Source of the DNA: a virus
Strand: one strand, 5' to 3'
IMG/VR virus record: IMGVR_UViG_3300045988_170308
Length of the DNA: 39,707 nucleotides
The first letter of the stretch is position 1. Each line of letters begins with the position of its first letter. Shown here piece by piece: positions 1,171 through 39,607 of the stretch. The notes under the pieces were generated by a model. It was given only the letters and a program-made list of their open reading frames with translations, was not told the DNA's origin and searched no databases. The position numbers and the translations under genes were made by a program.

Positions 1171-2643
1171 TTACTTGTTTCCTTCCTTGAGTAGAGTTTC
1201 GATCCGGTCGAGGCGCTCCGGGAGCGTGGCTACCGTGCGGGCGATTTCCGGGATGAGCTTGATTTTGTCGGCCACGAAGTCGACAAAGGTTTTGCCTTCG
1301 GTGGCTTTCCAGCCGGTGAAAAGGGGTTTGTTGTCCTGCCATTCGGGACCAACTAGTTGGTCTAGGATCCAACGCACCATGCGTGGTTCTCCTTCTTCTT
1401 GTTGTGGTTGTGGTTGGTTAGGTGAGTCGAGGAGTTCGGCTGCGTAGGCCAGCACCACGTCGAACGGGAAGCCGGGGCCGGGGTCGGTGTGGTCGACCTC
1501 CCGCCAGGCCTCGGAGATTTCCGCATGGCCATGAACGCCACGAGCCCCGGCGCGGAGTTGATCGGCGTCGATGAACTCTAGGGGGATGTCGTAGAGTTGC
1601 GACCAGCTGGCGATTTGTTCGGCGGTCCGCCGCAGCTTTGCGTCGTCGGCAAGCCAGTCTTCGCGGCTCATGCTGGCGTAGCCTGTCAAACTGATGTGCA
1701 GGCAGCGGGCGTTGCCGGTGGGGCCTGCTGCGTACGGCATGAAATCATCCGTGTTGCACAAAATTAAAATGCCGTCGGCGCCGGCGAGCACGTTATAGCT
1801 GGAGCCGTTAGCGGGGTTTGTTTGCCACTGGGCGACGGCAATGCCGTCTCGTTCTGGCGGGCACTCCACTGTGTGGACGCAGATCGACTGAATAGTATCG
1901 AGGGAGCGGTAGCCGACGCCGGGCATGTCCGCGGTGAAATCAGCATCGTATCGGATTTCCATGGTTCCTCCTTCTTCTTGGGTTGGGGTTTCAGGTATGG
2001 GGTTGGGGGCGCGTGATGCGGTGCCGTTTGGGTGTTGACCCCAGTAGTCGCCGAGCACGAAATTGATATCGCAGTCGATGCTGCCCACGGTCTCGCTACC
2101 CGGGCGCTGGTACAGCACTGCTTCCGTGGATAGGACGCCTCCGCTCCAGGCCGCAGTCTGCCACGCCAGGAACTTTCCGCCGCCCAAGTCAGCAATGAGC
2201 GCATCTGCGGCAGCCCAAGCGATCACCCTGGAATGCCCGTAAATACCGACTCGTTCACGCCCCAAGACTTCACAGCAGGCACGAAAATATTCGGAGGCAA
2301 CGCCGTTCCACTCGTCAAGGCTGATAGGGAAATCCACCGCAAAGAACACGGGATGTTCAGAACAGTCGAGCTCGTCGAGTTTCTGCTGGGCCGCCTGGGC
2401 ATCGGCCAAACCACCGTTATAGCCGCGCATCACGTCGGAATCATCTTCTTTTCCGAACTGCCATACGAAAGCGACCCCCAGGCCATGCGCCTGGAGGTCA
2501 CCTAGTTCAGCCTTCTGGATGGGTTTACCTAGCATCCAGCTGGCCCTGGGTGGACTGATGTAGCGGATCACGCCATCATGGCCAGCAGCGCGAATCGCCG
2601 CAGCTGGCGGCACGCCAGCACTGTAATCAAGAATTGTTAACAA
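1171..2643 (-). CDS. Endolysin (lysin A-type): glycoside-hydrolase-like N-domain plus N-acetylmuramoyl-L-alanine amidase domain
   Basis: 490 aa. The N-terminal DUF1906/GH25-like region contains GVIRYISPP and GLGVAFVWQFG. The central amidase_2/PGRP-like region contains ICVHTVECP, HGHAEIS and HTDPGPGFP. It lies immediately upstream of the holin. Confidence 0.85.
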   Translation of the reverse strand: MLTILDYSAGVPPAAAIRAAGHDGVIRYISPPRASWMLGKPIQKAELGDLQAHGLGVAFVWQFGKEDDSDVMRGYNGGLADAQAAQQKLDELDCSEHPVFFAVDFPISLDEWNGVASEYFRACCEVLGRERVGIYGHSRVIAWAAADALIADLGGGKFLAWQTAAWSGGVLSTEAVLYQRPGSETVGSIDCDINFVLGDYWGQHPNGTASRAPNPIPETPTQEEGGTMEIRYDADFTADMPGVGYRSLDTIQSICVHTVECPPERDGIAVAQWQTNPANGSSYNVLAGADGILILCNTDDFMPYAAGPTGNARCLHISLTGYASMSREDWLADDAKLRRTAEQIASWSQLYDIPLEFIDADQLRAGARGVHGHAEISEAWREVDHTDPGPGFPFDVVLAYAAELLDSPNQPQPQQEEGEPRMVRWILDQLVGPEWQDNKPLFTGWKATEGKTFVDFVADKIKLIPEIARTVATLPERLDRIETLLKEGNK

Positions 2644-2653
2644 TGTTTTCTCC

Positions 2654-3439
2654 TTATTGGAAAGTCATAGGCGGCATGGGGTGAGCACCGTGCAAGCCCA
2701 GTGTGCGGCGGATGAAATCAATCCCCCGGGGGCGGACACGAGTCGTGTGCGTTACCACCTGGGTGCCGTTCGAACGGGTATAGCCGCCGGCCTTCACCTC
2801 GAAATAGGTTGCGTAGCGTTGGTATGGGGTGTTCCGCATATCGCCTTTAGTAATCAAGATGCCCCGGTTCCGTAGCTCACGGAAAAGCGTGTTCTGGCCG
2901 ATGCCTAGCATTTTCGCCACCGTGCCCATGCTGTAGGAGCCGGTGGAATCAATAAAACAGTCGTAGGCATCCGCCTTCGGCCGAAGCTGCTTATTAGCAG
3001 CCTCTAAGGCCAGGCGTTCCTCTTCAGCATTGAGCGCAATTAAAAGAATCTCAGAACGGGTCAACTGCGACGGGTCAAACGCCGGCGCCATGCGGGCACG
3101 CTTTTCCACCTCGATGAAATAGCGGCGGGCTTGCCTACCCTTCGCGGAGCGCTGGATCATGGCAATCTCCTTTGCCATGTCCAAAGACACAACATGATTC
3201 AACCGCGGCCGAGACGGCATTCCCGCAGGTGACGCCGAATGCTCATTTTTGAGCGCATAGTCCACCCCCTCCTCAAAACCATAGGCAACCATTCGCGGCC
3301 ACCAATCTTTATAGGGGGTTTTCACTTCCAGAAAACTATGAAGATCACGCCCCAACACCGCCTGAACGCCCTCCCCCATGTTCGTAATAGGGATGAGCTG
3401 GCCGCCACCTGGTGTATGATTATTATCTGGTTTCGACAT
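2654..3439 (-). CDS. Antirepressor, AntA-like N-domain plus KilAC C-domain
   Basis: 261 aa. The AntA-like N-terminus includes LHSFLEVKTPYKDWWPRMVAYGFEEGVDY. The KilAC-type C-terminus includes PKADAYDCFIDSTGSYSMGTVAKMLGIGQNTLFRELR. The C-domain is paralogous to ORF 20386..21174. Confidence 0.75.
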   Translation of the reverse strand: MSKPDNNHTPGGGQLIPITNMGEGVQAVLGRDLHSFLEVKTPYKDWWPRMVAYGFEEGVDYALKNEHSASPAGMPSRPRLNHVVSLDMAKEIAMIQRSAKGRQARRYFIEVEKRARMAPAFDPSQLTRSEILLIALNAEEERLALEAANKQLRPKADAYDCFIDSTGSYSMGTVAKMLGIGQNTLFRELRNRGILITKGDMRNTPYQRYATYFEVKAGGYTRSNGTQVVTHTTRVRPRGIDFIRRTLGLHGAHPMPPMTFQ

Positions 3440-3474
3440 GAAGAGTCTCCTTTCGAAATTATTTTTGTATTAGA

Positions 3475-3513
3475 AAACCCGCGGCCTCACATTTTTAGGA
3501 GGGCCGCGGGTTT
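3475..3513 (-). terminator. Rho-independent terminator after the tail fibre gene (minus strand)
   Basis: 12-bp perfect stem AAACCCGCGGCC / GGCCGCGGGTTT. On the minus strand the stem runs into TTTTC. Confidence 0.7.
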
Positions 3514-3551
3514 CCGCATTTGTTGCTAGTGTTAGTGCAGGGTTTTGGCTG

Positions 3552-4754
3552 TTAGTTAATGGCGAAATCTCGAATGTACATGCCCATGCCGTACCCAGTC
3601 TTTGCTGCAGGGTCCGAGAAATTCACGCTCACCACACCTTCCCTTGTGATGGTGCACCAGCCGGGGGCGCTGCGTTTCTCCGGGCTGGTGAGGAAGAAAT
3701 CCACATCCCGATTCGGGGGCCGGAACTTCGGCGGAAGGGTCCCTTTCACACCAGCAGAAGCACCGCTGACAGCAACCCACACCATCGCGCCAATCCGGGT
3801 GAGAATGATTTCACCGTCATTCCACCGGATCAGATCATCTTCCGGCACGTCAAGACGACGATTCACCTCCTTGATTTTGGTATCAACATAGCCCTTATTA
3901 GCAATATGAGTAGCGGTGACGGGATCACCAATATCCGCATGACCAGCATCACTACGAATCATGAGGGAAGCCTGGCCAGGAGTCAGGAATGCTGAGGCCA
4001 CCGGCGGAAGACCCTGAATATCACGGATCTGGTGCGTATGCTCCTTATCAGCCTTCTCCAGCCGGAGCTTGTTATCGGCTTTGTCCACATAGTCCTTGTT
4101 GGTTGCATGAGCCGGCTCAGTGATCGAGGGCGTGGTGATAGCGATCCGACCATCCGCCTTGGTCTTCACAAACGCAGCCCGTTGCACATCATGATGAATA
4201 CTGAAATCCACATCCCCCGCAGTAATAACCTTAGGCTCAGCAGCAGTACCAGTCAGATCTCCAGCAAGTTGGATTTTGCCCTGCACGGTAGCGGTAGCAG
4301 GAGGCGTCGGTTGTGCCGCAGCAGTGGCGTTTTCCGCAGCAGTTGCTGCTTTCTTCGCCGCCACCTCAGCAGCGCGTTCTGCAGTGATGGCACCCTGCCA
4401 GGCAGCATAGGCGCGGTCAGCATCCGCCGCTACCGCTGATTCCACTGACGGCCGGTACTGGAAACTGCGCTCCATACACGTACGCAGCGACACCGGACCC
4501 GTTCCCTCAGGGACCACAACCTCAAACGGGGCACTGCCACGCACGGATTGGGTACGGATCTGCACCAGCAGCGGGCCAGACTCTACCTGGACCTCGGCTT
4601 TGCCGTCGGTCAGATCAACATGCACGGGGGCTGTCATGATAACCGACCCCGTGAAATCGGCGGAGCCGCGGAGCGCTGGTGCTTGCAAGAGCACGTAGTC
4701 CTCGGGGTGGGGTTTACCGCCCACATCGCGCAGGTCAATGATGAGTGTTCGCAT
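3552..4754 (-). CDS. Tail fibre / minor tail protein
   Basis: 400 aa at the end of the tail module. It has fibre-type repeated motifs ATNKDYVDKADNK and IANKGYVDTKIKE and an Ala-rich helical segment. Confidence 0.65.
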   Translation of the reverse strand: MRTLIIDLRDVGGKPHPEDYVLLQAPALRGSADFTGSVIMTAPVHVDLTDGKAEVQVESGPLLVQIRTQSVRGSAPFEVVVPEGTGPVSLRTCMERSFQYRPSVESAVAADADRAYAAWQGAITAERAAEVAAKKAATAAENATAAAQPTPPATATVQGKIQLAGDLTGTAAEPKVITAGDVDFSIHHDVQRAAFVKTKADGRIAITTPSITEPAHATNKDYVDKADNKLRLEKADKEHTHQIRDIQGLPPVASAFLTPGQASLMIRSDAGHADIGDPVTATHIANKGYVDTKIKEVNRRLDVPEDDLIRWNDGEIILTRIGAMVWVAVSGASAGVKGTLPPKFRPPNRDVDFFLTSPEKRSAPGWCTITREGVVSVNFSDPAAKTGYGMGMYIRDFAIN

Positions 4755-32768: not shown

Positions 32769-33031
32769 TATGCAGCCTCCAACGCCAACCGGCGGGGCGG
32801 CCGAGTAGCGGTCCGCACTAACGCCATATATCGTTCCTGCTGGGCAGCAGCAAGTTTCATGTGAGCGTACGCCACCGCATCACCCCAGCTACGGAACGAG
32901 GCGACGAGCTCACCACCCCACAAAACTTCCCACAAATCCGGGTACGACTGGCCAGTGAGAGCACCGAAAAGGCCGATTCGCTCCACACCCGGCCGCAGCC
33001 GGATCCGCAGCTTCAATTGCAAACTGCTCAT
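32768..33031 (-). CDS. Hypothetical protein
   Basis: About 87 aa from the ATG at 33031 (ATGA overlap with the upstream stop at 33028). Confidence 0.45.
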   Translation of the reverse strand: MSSLQLKLRIRLRPGVERIGLFGALTGQSYPDLWEVLWGGELVASFRSWGDAVAYAHMKLAAAQQERYMALVRTATRPPRRLALEAA

Positions 33032-33243
33032 GATCGCTGACCCTCCCGCGCAATAGCCGCGTTGGCCCACATCATGGTCTCCTCCAGACGCAGCAGTGCT
33101 TGTTTCTTCTCCCAGCCATCAGCCAGCAGAGCATTCAGCTCAATAGCTACAGCCTTGATCTTCTTGCCCATCTGAACCCGCCGCTTGCGGGTCTCAGCAT
33201 CCAAAGTGCGATAATCAAACCGCTTATCAATCTCAGTCATCAT
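33028..33243 (-). CDS. Small helical protein (possible Acb2-like nucleotide sponge), paralog of 27972..28223
   Basis: 71 aa: MMTEIDKRFDYRT...KKQALLRLEETMMWANAAIAREG. It shares the N-terminal (E)ID+RF+Y motif and the C-terminal LE..(M/S)WA.AAI.R motif with the other copy. Confidence 0.55.
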   Translation of the reverse strand: MMTEIDKRFDYRTLDAETRKRRVQMGKKIKAVAIELNALLADGWEKKQALLRLEETMMWANAAIAREGQRS

Positions 33244-33281: not shown

Positions 33282-33470
33282 TTAGTCGCCGCCGCGGAGC
33301 ACGTGCTTGCCGATCACGGTGATCGCGCCGTCCTCGTCGATGTAGCCCATGTTCAGCATCGCCCGACGCCCAGCAGCGGTCATTTTCTTCCCTGCAGCGT
33401 GACGGCGTAGCGACTTATACGCCAAGTGGGCCTCGTAGGTGTTAGACTGGCCGATACGTTTCCAGGACAT
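33282..33470 (-). CDS. Hypothetical small basic protein
   Basis: 62 aa, colinear in the early operon. Confidence 0.4.
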   Translation of the reverse strand: MSWKRIGQSNTYEAHLAYKSLRRHAAGKKMTAAGRRAMLNMGYIDEDGAITVIGKHVLRGGD

Positions 33471-33573
33471 TTTCTTTTCCTTTCTCTGTCTTGGGAATGT
33501 GTTTTATGCAGTCCCCCGCCTTCCCCAGCGGGGGACCAAAGTTATCAATAGGGGTTGGGGGTGGAGCCGACGG

Positions 33574-34245
33574 CTACGTGAACAAGCGAGTCAGCGTGGC
33601 GAACTTTTCAGCCGGAATCGCTTCAAAGAAGATGTCACCGTCGAAGATGCACGCATCCCAACCCTCACGGACGACACGGAAACCATCAACATGCATGGTG
33701 ATAAGCCCGGTATCCTCCAGGACAAAGAGGTTACGCATCTCCTCGAACCGCTCCTCCGGCACCCGGAACAGCTCACGCTCACCGCGGGTGAAGACCACCC
33801 CATCATCGACACGCTCAGCAACGGTCCAATCAAAAAGCTTTCCCAGGTACACGTGCGTGGCATCATCCTGCGGTAACGGCTTCGGAGCGGGATACGAATC
33901 GCCCTGGGCAGCCTCCCCTGCGGCAGCACCATCATCATCGCTATCACCCTCGTCATCCCAATGCTTCAGGAGATCATCCACATCAATGTCAATCGGGTCA
34001 TCCACGTCTGAAACAGCAGTAGCATCAGCAATCGACTCATCAGTCAACGCATCCAAAACGCCATCATCCAGCAACTGCGCACCCCGCAGTCGAACCTGAA
34101 CACCATCACCCGTGGTCACCAGGTCGATCGTGCAATCCTGATCGGCGTCCGCGTGAACGTGCAGGTGAATCTGCACCAGCGAACCGTCACACCCCAAAGG
34201 CACACTCACCACACCAGCCCCCAAATCTGCACTACTCATCATCAC
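33574..34245 (-). CDS. Highly acidic early protein (function unknown; DNA-mimic/anti-restriction is one possibility)
   Basis: 223 aa. Central run DVDDPIDIDVDDLLKHWDDEGDSDDDG. It is the first protein gene after the tRNA-like element in the early operon. Confidence 0.55.
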   Translation of the reverse strand: MMMSSADLGAGVVSVPLGCDGSLVQIHLHVHADADQDCTIDLVTTGDGVQVRLRGAQLLDDGVLDALTDESIADATAVSDVDDPIDIDVDDLLKHWDDEGDSDDDGAAAGEAAQGDSYPAPKPLPQDDATHVYLGKLFDWTVAERVDDGVVFTRGERELFRVPEERFEEMRNLFVLEDTGLITMHVDGFRVVREGWDACIFDGDIFFEAIPAEKFATLTRLFT

Positions 34246-34290
34246 TTATTCCTTTCTCTTGAAGGTTTACGCACCACACCTCGTGGTACT

Positions 34291-34362
34291 TGGTGCCCAC
34301 GGCTGGATTCGAACCAGCAGCATCCATATGAAGCCCGGACTGGATGCGGCCATTTCATGGGC
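34291..34362 (-). tRNA. tRNA-like element with canonical acceptor stem, T-arm and encoded CCA but aberrant D and anticodon arms
   Basis: The minus strand reads GCCCATG AA ATGGCCGCATCCAG TCCGG GCTTCAT ATGGA TGCT GCTGG TTCGAAT CCAGC CGTGGGC A CCA. It has a 7-bp acceptor stem with one G-U pair and a perfect T-arm. The D-arm has only about 3 bp and lacks GG. The anticodon arm is either imperfect (UUC with C33) or an alternative 6-bp stem, CATCCA/TGGATG. Confidence 0.4.
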
Positions 34363-34411
34363 CTGGTGCCGGATAACCCGCCGGCAACGGGGCCAGGACT
34401 CTACCTGGGGC

Positions 34412-34588
34412 CTAGATGCGATAGGTGTTGCGTTCCACCAGCTCCTCCACCTCCGCACGGATATACAGAATCTTCTGCCGAGAAAGGCGGATCCGAGACA
34501 GTCGCCCCTCCCTGGCATAGCGCTGCAACATGCGGGTTGAAATCCGCAGATACTCCGCCGCTTCCCGAGTTGACATATAACGCGACAT
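34412..34588 (-). CDS. Excisionase-family (MerR-like) HTH DNA-binding protein
   Basis: 58 aa: MSRYMSTREAAEYLRISTRMLQRYAREGRLSRIRLSRQKILYIRAEVEELV. Only the C-terminal part of track ORF 34412..34891 is credible. Confidence 0.6.
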   Translation of the reverse strand: MSRYMSTREAAEYLRISTRMLQRYAREGRLSRIRLSRQKILYIRAEVEELVERNTYRI

Positions 34589-34643
34589 CACAAAACCCCG
34601 TTTCGCTTTACGACGATTCGCCCCACCTGCTTCAATAGGTTGC

Positions 34644-35282
34644 GTGGATTCATCAATCATCCTTGGGATCATCGGAGCCGCCACCGGGGCTGGCGGCCTG
34701 CTGCTCGCGGCACATGCGAATCGCATCAGTAAGAAGGCCAATAGCCTTGCCGAAACCGCTAACGAAACCGCTCGGGAAAGCCTCGACACTGCTATGGAAG
34801 CCAACCGCATCTCGGAAAAAGCGAACAAGCTGGCTGAAGACGCGAACACGATCAGCGATCGAGCGCTCGCAGCAACCACGGACAATCTCATCTACGACTG
34901 GCAAATCCAAATTGATGACAGCAGTAGAACCGTCACCATCAGGAATGGCAGCCCCCATGATGCTTTTGACGTTGCCGTCTTCGTCAAGCGTGAAGGCACG
35001 CCCGTAGCGCACTGTTTCCGTAAGGAAGTGGCCGGTTTTGATGAGATTGTTTTCGACATCAGCGGCGTGCTTCAAGAACATTTCGATGAGGTAGCCAGTC
35101 ACCCTAGCAGAGATGACTTCATCGTCCACGATATGTTCGTCGCCGGAGAGAAGGGGGAAACCGTCATCACTATCCTTGACTTCCATATCACTTGGAGAAC
35201 ACCAACCGGGATAGACCGCGATAGCGTCATCTCGTACACGCTCAGCCACGGCGATAACTACGGAACCATTGAAAAACGCTGA
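34644..35282 (+). CDS. Membrane-anchored protein of unknown function, encoded antisense to the early operon (candidate lysogen-expressed exclusion or defence gene)
   Basis: 212 aa from the GTG at 34644. N-terminal TM helix IILGIIGAATGAGGLLLAA. Internal duplicated motif ANRISKKANSLAETAN / ANRISEKANKLAEDAN. The plus frame shows purine-rich first codon positions and G/C-rich third positions, whereas the mirror minus ORF does not. Confidence 0.6.
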   Translation: MDSSIILGIIGAATGAGGLLLAAHANRISKKANSLAETANETARESLDTAMEANRISEKANKLAEDANTISDRALAATTDNLIYDWQIQIDDSSRTVTIRNGSPHDAFDVAVFVKREGTPVAHCFRKEVAGFDEIVFDISGVLQEHFDEVASHPSRDDFIVHDMFVAGEKGETVITILDFHITWRTPTGIDRDSVISYTLSHGDNYGTIEKR

Positions 35283-35300
35283 CATCACTACGCCCTCCTT

Positions 35301-35489
35301 CTAAACCAGATTTTTCTTCGCTAGCGCTTCGATCGAGTCACGGTTGATCCGCCGGGTACGCTGGCTGAAATACGTCGCCACCAACGCTTTCTCCGCGATT
35401 AATTTCTCCACCGTGTCCGTGCTAACCTGCATATACTCCGCAGCCTGCTTGACCGTCAGCCACTGCGGGGCAATCACTACCTCACGCAT
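35301..35489 (-). CDS. Excisionase-family HTH DNA-binding protein (candidate Xis or early regulator)
   Basis: 62 aa: LTVKQAAEYMQVSTDTVEKLIAEKALVATYF...RRINRDSIEAL. Confidence 0.6.
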   Translation of the reverse strand: MREVVIAPQWLTVKQAAEYMQVSTDTVEKLIAEKALVATYFSQRTRRINRDSIEALAKKNLV

Positions 35490-35528
35490 CCTTTTCCTTC
35501 CTCTTGCTTTACGACGCCCCGGCGCGAA

Positions 35529-35795
35529 TCACGCAGCAGATCGCTTACTTGGCCGGCGGCGTTGAGGTCGGATTTTTTCTGTCGAAACGTAAAATGCATC
35601 GGCGAATTCAACCGGATAGGTTGTCAATACAGATCCGATAAATCGTGGTCCTGCTTCGGCTTGCCCTCTGGCATATCGGCTAATAGTCGATACGGTTGTC
35701 TGCAGTTCATCCGCTAGGCCGGATAAGCTGCCCGCTTGCGTTATTCGATGCTCAAGCCAATCTTGTCGCACTCGAACCGTGTTTACGGTAGGCAT
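35529..35795 (-). CDS. Cro-like XRE-family HTH regulator
   Basis: 88 aa from the ATG at 35795, which has AGGAGG 4 nt upstream. The HTH is GSLSGLADELQTTVSTISRYARGQ. It is divergent from the repressor gene. Confidence 0.7.
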   Translation of the reverse strand: MPTVNTVRVRQDWLEHRITQAGSLSGLADELQTTVSTISRYARGQAEAGPRFIGSVLTTYPVEFADAFYVSTEKIRPQRRRPSKRSAA

Positions 35796-35825
35796 TTCGC
35801 CTCCTTTGTTTTTAAACAATCTTGA

Positions 35826-35919
35826 TTTGTGCTTACGCAAGCAAGAATAGACCAATTTTTGTTCTAGCGCAAGGCCAATTTGGATTGGCCCAATAACTTG
35901 CCTTTTTGTGCTTACGCAA
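35826..35919. promoter_or_regulatory. Genetic switch: two identical 15-bp operator-like repeats plus a central inverted repeat, with divergent promoters
   Basis: TTTGTGCTTACGCAA at 35826-35840 and 35905-35919. GGCCAATttggATTGGCC at 35873-35890. On the plus strand, TTGCCT-17 nt-TACGAT ends 7 nt before the repressor ATG, which suggests a leaderless mRNA. The second repeat fills that spacer. Confidence 0.6.
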
Positions 35920-35933
35920 TTACGATCTGACAC

Positions 35934-36464
35934 ATGAAGCAAACTCGCTGGTGGAAATACGTAACAGAAACAATCCAAGGTCGCACTTTCAAAGAAGCTG
36001 CCAAAATCGCAGGATTCGACCAATCAGCTTTCACCCGATGGAAAGATGGTGCAGCCGCAAAACCTGAATTCGTTGTAAAATTTGCCCGCGCCTATAACCG
36101 CAATGTCTTAGAAGCCCTAGTGGAGGCAGAATTTATCACAGAACAAGAAGCGGGATTGCAAAAAGTAAACGTTCCAGATATCCGATCCGCACTACGGCTC
36201 GCACCTGAGGAATGGCTAGCTGACGAGGTACTCAACCGAATGCGCGTAGGCGCAAAAACTGACGAGTTCGCACCCCCTCTTGACGAACTGGTTGAACGCA
36301 AACGACATAAAGCTAATAAACACCCTGATCCCAAACCGGATGATCCTTGGGCTGCTGCGACCACAGTTAGTGGTAAGGGCTCGTGGCGCGGTGATGAAAT
36401 GGTTGCCGATGACTCGGAGGAAGAAGGCTTCCTAGGTGACGATAATTACAGCGATGGTCTATAA
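35934..36464 (+). CDS. CI-like immunity repressor (HTH)
   Basis: 176 aa. The N-terminal HTH is RTFKEAAKIAGFDQSAFTRWKDG, followed by FARAYNRNVLEALVEAEFITEQEA. It is divergent from the cro-like gene and has an acidic C-terminal tail. Confidence 0.7.
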   Translation: MKQTRWWKYVTETIQGRTFKEAAKIAGFDQSAFTRWKDGAAAKPEFVVKFARAYNRNVLEALVEAEFITEQEAGLQKVNVPDIRSALRLAPEEWLADEVLNRMRVGAKTDEFAPPLDELVERKRHKANKHPDPKPDDPWAAATTVSGKGSWRGDEMVADDSEEEGFLGDDNYSDGL

Positions 36465-38362: not shown

Positions 38363-39607
38363 TCATTCACCGCTGATAGATAGGTTCACTTTATCCATAA
38401 GCACGTCGATGCGGCCCGTGCGCACCTTCATATACACGCGAATAATCGTTTCCAGATCCGATTGCCCCAATAACCGACCGATCTCTTTCACGTGCGCACC
38501 TTGCTCAGCCAACCTGGTAATCAACCAGTTCCGCCCACAGTGCGGGTCAATATCCGTAGTTACTCCAGCCGCCACCTCAGCCGCGTTAAGCCGGCTACGG
38601 TAACTTGTATCCATCACCGGGCGACCCGTGCGTGTTGTTGTGAAAAGCTTCACCATACGGTCACCCCACTGGCTACGGACCCGGCATGCTACCGCTGGGT
38701 AGTCTCGCATATGGTCAAAGAAAAACCTGGTATGGCTCGCCATAATCGGCACAGTGCGGTACCCCGCGGACGTCTTAGGCGTCTGCCAATTCATATACAC
38801 ATGGCTTTTACCATCAACTTTTTCCGTAAGCCTCTGCGCATTCTGCTCTATGGTGACTAGTATTCTCGGAGCATACGGCACATCACCTATCACACACACA
38901 TGCCGTTGTTCTAAAGCCAGAGCCTCCCCTATCCGCAACCCATGGAACAGCACCAATGACGTTAGCGCCTTATACCTGGCCGGCATATGCTCAATGATCG
39001 CTTTGAGCTCCTCATCGGAGGGGAGATATTTTTCTTCCGGCTTCACTCTTATCCCCGCGGCCTTAATTTCCACCGGGTTAGCCGGGATTAATTCCCGATC
39101 CACAGCCGCAGCGCATGCAGCCTTTAACCGTTTGTAAGCCTTCTGATTCACCGTCGGCGACTTATACGCCACACTGATAGCCTCCCACCACTCATAAACA
39201 TCATTCTTCGTCAGATCAGCAAGCGCAATCCCCGCAAGCCTAGTGATCGCAGCCACCTTATCGCCTGGTGGAAGGGGTGCCGTAATCCGATTCCGAACCG
39301 CCCTTTCATAAACCTGAATAGTGGACTCCTTCACCGGAACCGGCCGGTGCCGCAACGCCTCATGAAACCGCTCGACCCACTCACCAACAGTGATCCTGCT
39401 AGCCTTACGCTTCTCCTGGGCTGCTTCCCGCTGGGCGGGTGGGGTCCATTGCCCAAACGTAATAAGCTCCTCTTCCCCAGATAACCACGCCCCGGCAAGC
39501 CGCTTCGTCTTAAACGTTGATGGCGCCTTATACGACACGCCCTTATGATGGTACCGTGCCTGATAACGACCTGATGGAAGCTTACGGATACTGCCAAAAG
39601 CGGACAT
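38363..39607 (-). CDS. int: Tyrosine integrase
   Basis: 414 aa. N-terminal GSIRKLPSGRYQARY. Catalytic-region motifs HGLRIGEALAL, HCGRNW and IIRVYMKV. It is adjacent to the terminal repeat. Confidence 0.9.
   Translation of the reverse strand: MSAFGSIRKLPSGRYQARYHHKGVSYKAPSTFKTKRLAGAWLSGEEELITFGQWTPPAQREAAQEKRKASRITVGEWVERFHEALRHRPVPVKESTIQVYERAVRNRITAPLPPGDKVAAITRLAGIALADLTKNDVYEWWEAISVAYKSPTVNQKAYKRLKAACAAAVDRELIPANPVEIKAAGIRVKPEEKYLPSDEELKAIIEHMPARYKALTSLVLFHGLRIGEALALEQRHVCVIGDVPYAPRILVTIEQNAQRLTEKVDGKSHVYMNWQTPKTSAGYRTVPIMASHTRFFFDHMRDYPAVACRVRSQWGDRMVKLFTTTRTGRPVMDTSYRSRLNAAEVAAGVTTDIDPHCGRNWLITRLAEQGAHVKEIGRLLGQSDLETIIRVYMKVRTGRIDVLMDKVNLSISGE

Follow-up and report, generated by a model that had tools for sequence, protein, structure and literature searches.

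We identified a stretch of a temperate Corynebacterium phage genome in which the same 630 bases appear to be read in both directions, in the same codon register, to make two different conserved proteins. The window, the whole 39,707-nt stretch of DNA analysed, carries two mirror open reading frames, plus 34644..35282 and minus 34653..35285 (or 35288), and the sequence evidence indicates that both are genes, which would be a rare and well-supported case of fully overlapping antisense genes. Related proteins are named as Corynebacterium matruchotii. An integrase (38363..39607, minus strand), an ImmA/IrrE-like peptidase and a repressor-like gene lie at the right end of the window, and a leftward early operon begins with a Cro-like gene. 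The relevant features are as follows.

34644..35282, plus strand: plus gene, GTG start, 212 aa, encoding a predicted N-terminal membrane helix (residues 5-23), a helical stalk with AN..A..AN repeats (residues 24-80) and a predicted C-terminal beta-sandwich (residues 86-211).
34653..35285, minus strand: minus gene, 210 aa from the ATG at 35285 (211 aa from a GTG at 35288, also possible), a predicted soluble alpha/beta protein of the early leftward operon.
34607..34636, plus strand: promoter-like signal of the plus gene, with a -35-like TTTACG (34607-34612), an 18-nt spacer and a -10-like TTCAAT (34631-34636) ending 7 nt before the GTG.
35294..35300, minus strand: Shine-Dalgarno site AAGGAGG of the minus gene, starting immediately after the TAG stop (35301-35303) of the upstream gene, 5 nt before the GTG at 35288 and 8 nt before the ATG at 35285, with 12 nt between that stop and the GTG.
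35301..35489, minus strand: upstream HTH_17 (excisionase/MerR-like) gene of the early operon (Pfam PF12728, E 2.6e-10; also PHROGs matches).
34412..34591, minus strand: downstream HTH_17 gene (Pfam PF12728, E 1.5e-11), starting at GTG 34591 or ATG 34588 (MSRYMST...); the 61-nt spacer 34592..34652 upstream of it carries the plus-gene promoter-like signal.
35529..35780, minus strand: Cro-like HTH gene, the first gene of the leftward operon, with PHROGs matches to a repressor / HTH DNA-binding protein and AAGGAGG upstream of its ATG at 35780.
35934..36464, plus strand: repressor-like gene (PHROGs transcriptional repressor families) with a leaderless build (TTGCCT, 17 nt, TACGAT, 7 nt, ATG).

The coordinates place plus position 1 opposite minus position 3, and plus residue i opposite minus residue 215-i. 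What the first-pass annotation had seen in the sequence was all present: the two mirror frames, an N-terminal hydrophobic helix (Kyte-Doolittle 2.08), the duplicated motif (HANRISKKANSLAETAN / EANRISEKANKLAEDAN), the flanking HTH_17 genes, the 18-nt gap to the stop of 35301..35489, and the TTCAAT 7 nt before the GTG. Its interpretation was only partly supported. The plus frame is, as it proposed, a real, conserved gene for a predicted single-pass membrane protein with its own promoter-like signal and no known family, but its treatment of the minus frame as a mirror shadow was not supported, and it had missed both the minus-strand Shine-Dalgarno site and a double openness far beyond chance. Its compositional argument for the plus frame did not discriminate: the plus frame has 74% purine at position 1 and 62% GC at position 3, the minus frame has 67.5% and 57%, and the codon log-odds between the two are near zero, because an RNY pattern is self-complementary.

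To ask whether both frames persist, we collected DNA of relatives (numbered L001 to L058; W denotes the group of the window), namely the close group at 83-96% identity (L005-L025), L001 (50%), L004 (59%), L002 and L003 (about 37%), the L027 group (about 41%), and very distant members found through a profile of the minus protein (L051-L054 and L056-L058). These lineages are metagenomic. Both mirror frames are open and each encodes a recognisable homologue in 13 diverged lineages (the W group, L001, L004, L002, L003, the L027 group, L051-L054 and L056-L058), down to about 25% identity and in DNA of 47-64% GC; plus homologues run from 94% down to about 25% identity. The exceptions are a single-frame sub-family, described below, and a decayed copy, L026, which is riddled with frameshifts in both frames. 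Because a stop in one frame is a TTA, CTA or TCA codon in the other, we calculated how often the mirror frame would be open given one protein and the local codon usage. The chance is 0.002-0.017 in the first six lineages, about 0.05 in L051 and L052 (0.002-0.06 per lineage overall), and 0 to 0.0005 in the low-GC loci (47-49% GC), with 0 of 4000 simulations open in L053 and L054. Across ten lineages there are 296 plus-frame and 331 minus-frame Leu+Ser codons, and the three forbidden codons occur only at or beside the partner's stop codon. Chance combined with shared ancestry was rejected as the reason for the open mirror frame, as lineages at 25-40% identity and 47-64% GC all keep it open.

Stop avoidance alone is weak evidence, as thousands of antiparallel ORFs show it without selection on their translation (bioRxiv 10.1101/724807), and the case therefore rests on a resampling test, the single-frame relatives and the predicted folds. 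In the resampling test one protein was held fixed, its synonymous codons were redrawn from the gene's own usage while mirror stops were forbidden, and the other frame was scored. Over five disjoint deep pairs the plus frame exceeds expectation with a Stouffer z of 13.5 and the minus frame with a z of 6.5, while eight ordinary gene pairs give -0.30, so the test is calibrated. In deep pairs, plus-frame nucleotide identity is 0.50, 0.63 and 0.44 at positions 1, 2 and 3, and the plus frame has the higher BLOSUM score in 45 of 45 lineage pairs, which cannot happen if only the minus frame codes. Minus four-fold sites are identical in 70% of cases against 31% expected, and plus four-fold sites in 43% against 27% expected, whereas control genes from the same phages at similar divergence sit near expectation. 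Substitution classes within closely related groups are nearly symmetric and the doubly synonymous class has only about 13 sites, so that these are only suggestive.

The single-frame sub-family (L019:1946..2542 and L043-L050) provides a natural control. Some relatives, such as L019 and L049, carry it as a second, diverged copy directly before the downstream HTH_17 gene, while in others (L048, L050) it is the only family member seen in the stretch fetched. It sits in the same operon slot and is followed by the same HTH_17 gene, with the operon-sense frame intact and 3-5 stops in the mirror frame of every member. NG86 omega is 0.36-0.56 in the sense frame and 0.85-1.09 in the dead mirror frame, which drifts neutrally, whereas in the dual gene both frames are below 1, with medians of about 0.5 and 0.6. 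On a tree of the minus-type proteins the sub-family groups with the W/L022 and L004 lineages on a long stem (support 91/87, stem 89-91, below the strict threshold). It therefore looks like a duplicate that probably lost the plus frame and kept the minus protein, which implies that the minus protein is useful by itself.

Each gene has start signals of its own, at the level of motifs. A Shine-Dalgarno-like site and start precede the minus gene in the six lineages compared, even where the upstream gene differs, and some lineages show ATGA or TAATG coupling; in L051 and L054 the site is weak. The plus gene has no Shine-Dalgarno site, but a TANNNT or TTNAAT hexamer ends 6-8 nt before its start codon in 10 of 10 lineages examined, against 6 of 78 other genes in these loci, several of which lie at the divergent switch region. 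The -35-like TTTACG is also kept in the L027 group. The -10 in the window lacks the usual A at position 2, and an E. coli-type sigma-70 scan finds no promoter here. The spacing implies a leaderless mRNA, a build that is common in Actinobacteria and shared by the repressor gene of this phage, whereas cro has a Shine-Dalgarno site.

Both proteins have confident predicted folds. AlphaFold2 with 17 sequences gives the plus protein a pLDDT of 81.9, with one long helix at residues 3-80 (membrane segment plus stalk) and a beta-sandwich at 86-211 with pLDDT 85-95, for which Foldseek returns only generic Ig/FN3-like sandwiches. A 19-residue window scores Kyte-Doolittle 1.9-2.6 in all ten lineages; its N-flank is neutral or acidic and its C-flank carries up to three Lys/Arg in every lineage, which predicts an N-out/C-in anchor with the sandwich in the cytoplasm. 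The minus protein, modelled with 23 sequences, has a pLDDT of 75.4 and a pTM of 0.74, with helices at 7-24 and 53-84, a sheet at 93-124, helices at 128-198 and disorder at 30-56 and 201-210, although the alignment included the single-frame relatives, which may carry the prediction. Helix lies opposite helix and strand opposite strand, and the plus membrane helix is the mirror of the acidic minus tail. A profile search finds 133 clusters of the minus family at 50% identity (at least 130). Pfam, PHROGs, PADLOC, NCBIfam, PDB sequences and Foldseek against PDB and BFVD assigned no function to either protein, and the minus protein has no match in PDB or BFVD. PHROGs gave only phrog_1950 (unknown function) and a weak spanin-like hit to the helix, PADLOC and NCBIfam gave none, and a DUF948 (PF06103) match scored 16.8 bits against a 37.2 cut-off and covers only helical residues 20-71. 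We also tried to score a mirror membrane helix from the C-terminal tails of the 133 family representatives, but this did not separate known dual members from single-frame members.

We consider it likely, though not certain, that both frames encode functional proteins. That both frames are kept open by selection, that each protein sequence is conserved beyond what the other frame imposes, and that each gene has its own conserved initiation motifs is shown by the comparisons above, whereas transcription and translation of both frames, the timing of their expression and the functions of both products are inferred from sequence alone. In this view the leftward gene is an ordinary member of the early lytic operon, in which ribosomes would start at the Shine-Dalgarno site directly after the preceding gene, and a promoter in the 61-bp spacer would start a leaderless plus mRNA at the GTG at 34644. 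Because the plus gene points the same way as the repressor gene and shares its leaderless build, we expect it to be made in the lysogen while the leftward operon is repressed; on induction, leftward transcription would express the minus protein and run head-on against plus transcription, and the switch would then choose which strand is read. An exclusion, defence or sensing role for the plus protein is a guess of modest weight, and an early host-directed role for the minus protein is likewise a guess.

The first-pass annotation had also proposed an opposite-strand moron, probably expressed in the lysogen, with a possible superinfection-exclusion or abortive-infection role. The moron reading does not fit: the plus gene is not an insert between two operon genes but is co-extensive with one, both frames are open together in all 13 lineages checked, and where the plus frame is lost it is decayed in place, not cleanly absent. 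No plus-strand terminator-like site was found in 34200-36000, the only terminator-like site being internal on the minus strand, and GC is 0.565 at 34001-35000 against 0.56-0.58 in the neighbouring early region. The predicted membrane anchor agrees with an exclusion-type protein, but no known defence or exclusion family matched.

Other readings of the locus are less likely. The strongest alternative, which we regard as unlikely, is that only the plus protein is functional and that the minus frame is kept open only so that ribosomes cover the operon mRNA across this 630-nt stretch and avoid Rho-dependent polarity on downstream early genes. The better conservation of the plus frame in all lineage pairs, the more frequent acceptance of minus-altering than plus-altering changes within groups, and the commonness of non-functional antisense ORFs with stop avoidance (10.1101/724807) favour it, and a Shine-Dalgarno site plus an open frame is all that such a role needs. 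However, minus-frame similarity exceeds what openness plus the plus protein predicts, the single-frame relatives keep this protein under purifying selection after losing the plus frame, and the predicted fold is confident. The opposite reading, in which only the operon-sense minus gene is real and the membrane helix and repeats of the plus ORF are mirror images of the acidic tail and helices of the minus protein, has in its favour the canonical Shine-Dalgarno site, operon orientation, tight spacing, large family and the choice of the ENA and Logan gene calls. We regard it as very unlikely, as in the dual clade minus third positions are more conserved than minus first positions (0.50 against 0.44), and given the excess identity at minus four-fold sites, the plus z of 13.5, the well-predicted plus C-terminal domain, the hexamer in 10 of 10 lineages, and the rise of the mirror omega to about 1 where the plus frame is dead. 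It is also very unlikely that the main plus-strand product is a regulatory antisense transcript, with the protein secondary, although this could be true in addition to our reading. Such a transcript, with no terminator after the plus gene, may run antisense to 35301..35780, through the HTH_17 gene and cro, and co-directionally towards the repressor gene, much like lambda P_RE, but an RNA role does not explain an open frame, a conserved membrane helix and sandwich domain, or plus-frame amino-acid conservation across 13 lineages.

Long antisense overlapping genes in prokaryotes and their viruses are few and disputed, and annotation pipelines discard them. The bacterial cases (E. coli nog1/citC, laoB, ano and asa; Pseudomonas aeruginosa olg1/olg2; PMC7457138, PMC8850804, PMC9927249) likewise have a protein-coding ORF antisense to another coding gene, with evidence of selection sought in both frames, but are described as young, embedded in a longer mother gene and supported mainly by RNA-seq and ribosome profiling. 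Here support is from sequence alone, the two genes are almost exactly co-extensive (630 of 639 and 633 nt), share one codon register, are conserved together through a family of more than 100 clusters (13 lineages checked on DNA), both have confident predicted folds, and a natural single-frame control exists. Non-functional long antiparallel ORFs, such as that opposite dnaK (Pfam PF10712), also show stop-codon avoidance in many genomes, but according to that preprint (10.1101/724807) lie opposite extremely conserved genes and show no negative selection, whereas here the partner is only 25-40% identical between lineages and the mirror frame has constraint, start signals and stand-alone relatives of its own. 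Prophage genes expressed in the lysogen for defence or exclusion (mycobacteriophage and Gordonia phage systems such as Sbash and CarolAnn; Sie-type membrane proteins) resemble the plus gene, which encodes a small, predicted membrane-anchored protein near the immunity region and points the same way as the repressor gene, but the plus gene lies inside, and antisense to, the early lytic operon rather than beside the repressor, and has no sequence or profile match to any known defence protein. In lambda, P_RE transcription through cro and oop RNA offer a parallel for a rightward transcript that would start inside the leftward early operon, but the antisense stretch there is not itself known to be a conserved protein-coding gene. 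The Rodin-Ohno hypothesis for the two aminoacyl-tRNA synthetase classes (PMC4082485) likewise supposes two folded proteins read from opposite strands in one register; it concerns an extinct ancestral gene, whereas this is a present-day phage locus with no link to synthetases.

A more far-reaching reading, which is possible but which we hold only tentatively, is that this is an ancient, obligately two-stranded gene module of temperate actinobacterial phages, in which the lysis-lysogeny switch would decide whether a membrane-anchored protein (leaderless, rightward, in the lysogen) or a cytoplasmic protein (Shine-Dalgarno-led, leftward, in lytic growth) is read from one 630-bp stretch. Head-on transcription would make the two states mutually exclusive, and the locus would be a living example of two folded proteins encoded in register on complementary strands. 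As a test system the locus can show how two proteins share one sequence and can test whether a phage switch can time-share one stretch of DNA, and the three codons avoided in each frame give stop mutations silent on one strand, which allow clean strand-specific knock-outs.

ARAGORN and Rfam found no RNA gene in the region. In public collections, a DNA search of GenBank phages found no match, a protein search there found one unannotated record, and two scans of genome contigs gave nothing useful. The locus also exposes an annotation problem, as public gene calls name one strand or the other at random: NCBI and JGI call the plus ORF, ENA and Logan call the minus ORF, and one NCBI record annotates both ORFs.

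Some relatives appear to carry a dual-coded copy and a single-frame copy of the overlapping locus in tandem, while other phages have only one type in this slot. The tandem ORFs lie at the following positions:
L019 (a relative) 1946-2542 and 3001-3645, checked on DNA
L049 (a second relative) 2291-2923 and 3001-3651, of which the first ORF rests only on a 210-aa gene call

In the contig of the distant relative L054 (NCBI assembly GCA_977052605.1), the gene calls on record include both antisense ORFs, at 2501-3100 on the plus strand and 2519-3070 on the minus strand. A decayed copy was identified at 2940-3660 of L026, a contig of 155 kb, in which both frames are broken by several frameshifts and which is either a pseudogene or an error-rich assembly. 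Among close relatives, the segment corresponding to positions 35100-35160 of the window (plus residues about 152-172, minus residues about 43-63) is hypervariable, with all three codon positions varying about equally, and faces a disordered loop of the predicted minus model and a loop of the predicted plus sandwich.

Three further stretches of the early region of the window were noted:
34291-34362, minus strand, tRNA-like element proposed by the first-pass annotation
33439-33876, plus strand, 145-aa ORF, and 33574-34245, minus strand, acidic 223-aa early gene
33028-33243, 71-aa gene, described as Acb2-like in the first-pass annotation

The first of these was proposed to have a perfect T-arm, but ARAGORN detected no tRNA in the window and an Rfam search of 34200-35950 gave no match at E-values up to 1. 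The 145-aa plus ORF shares the codon register of the acidic 223-aa early gene. In related phages, a 70-aa gene at a similar place in the early operon (L048, 5033-5245; L049, 5039-5251) carries the precomputed Pfam hit PF24729 (Acb2_Tad1_hairpin), which bears, by similarity of position alone, on the Acb2-like description of the 71-aa window gene.

The database representative P0079 differs from the intact ORF of the distant relative L058 (2001-2714) over its last third, which matches another frame further downstream, and looks like a chimera of two frames or a rearranged copy. The intact L058 locus is dual-coded like the rest.
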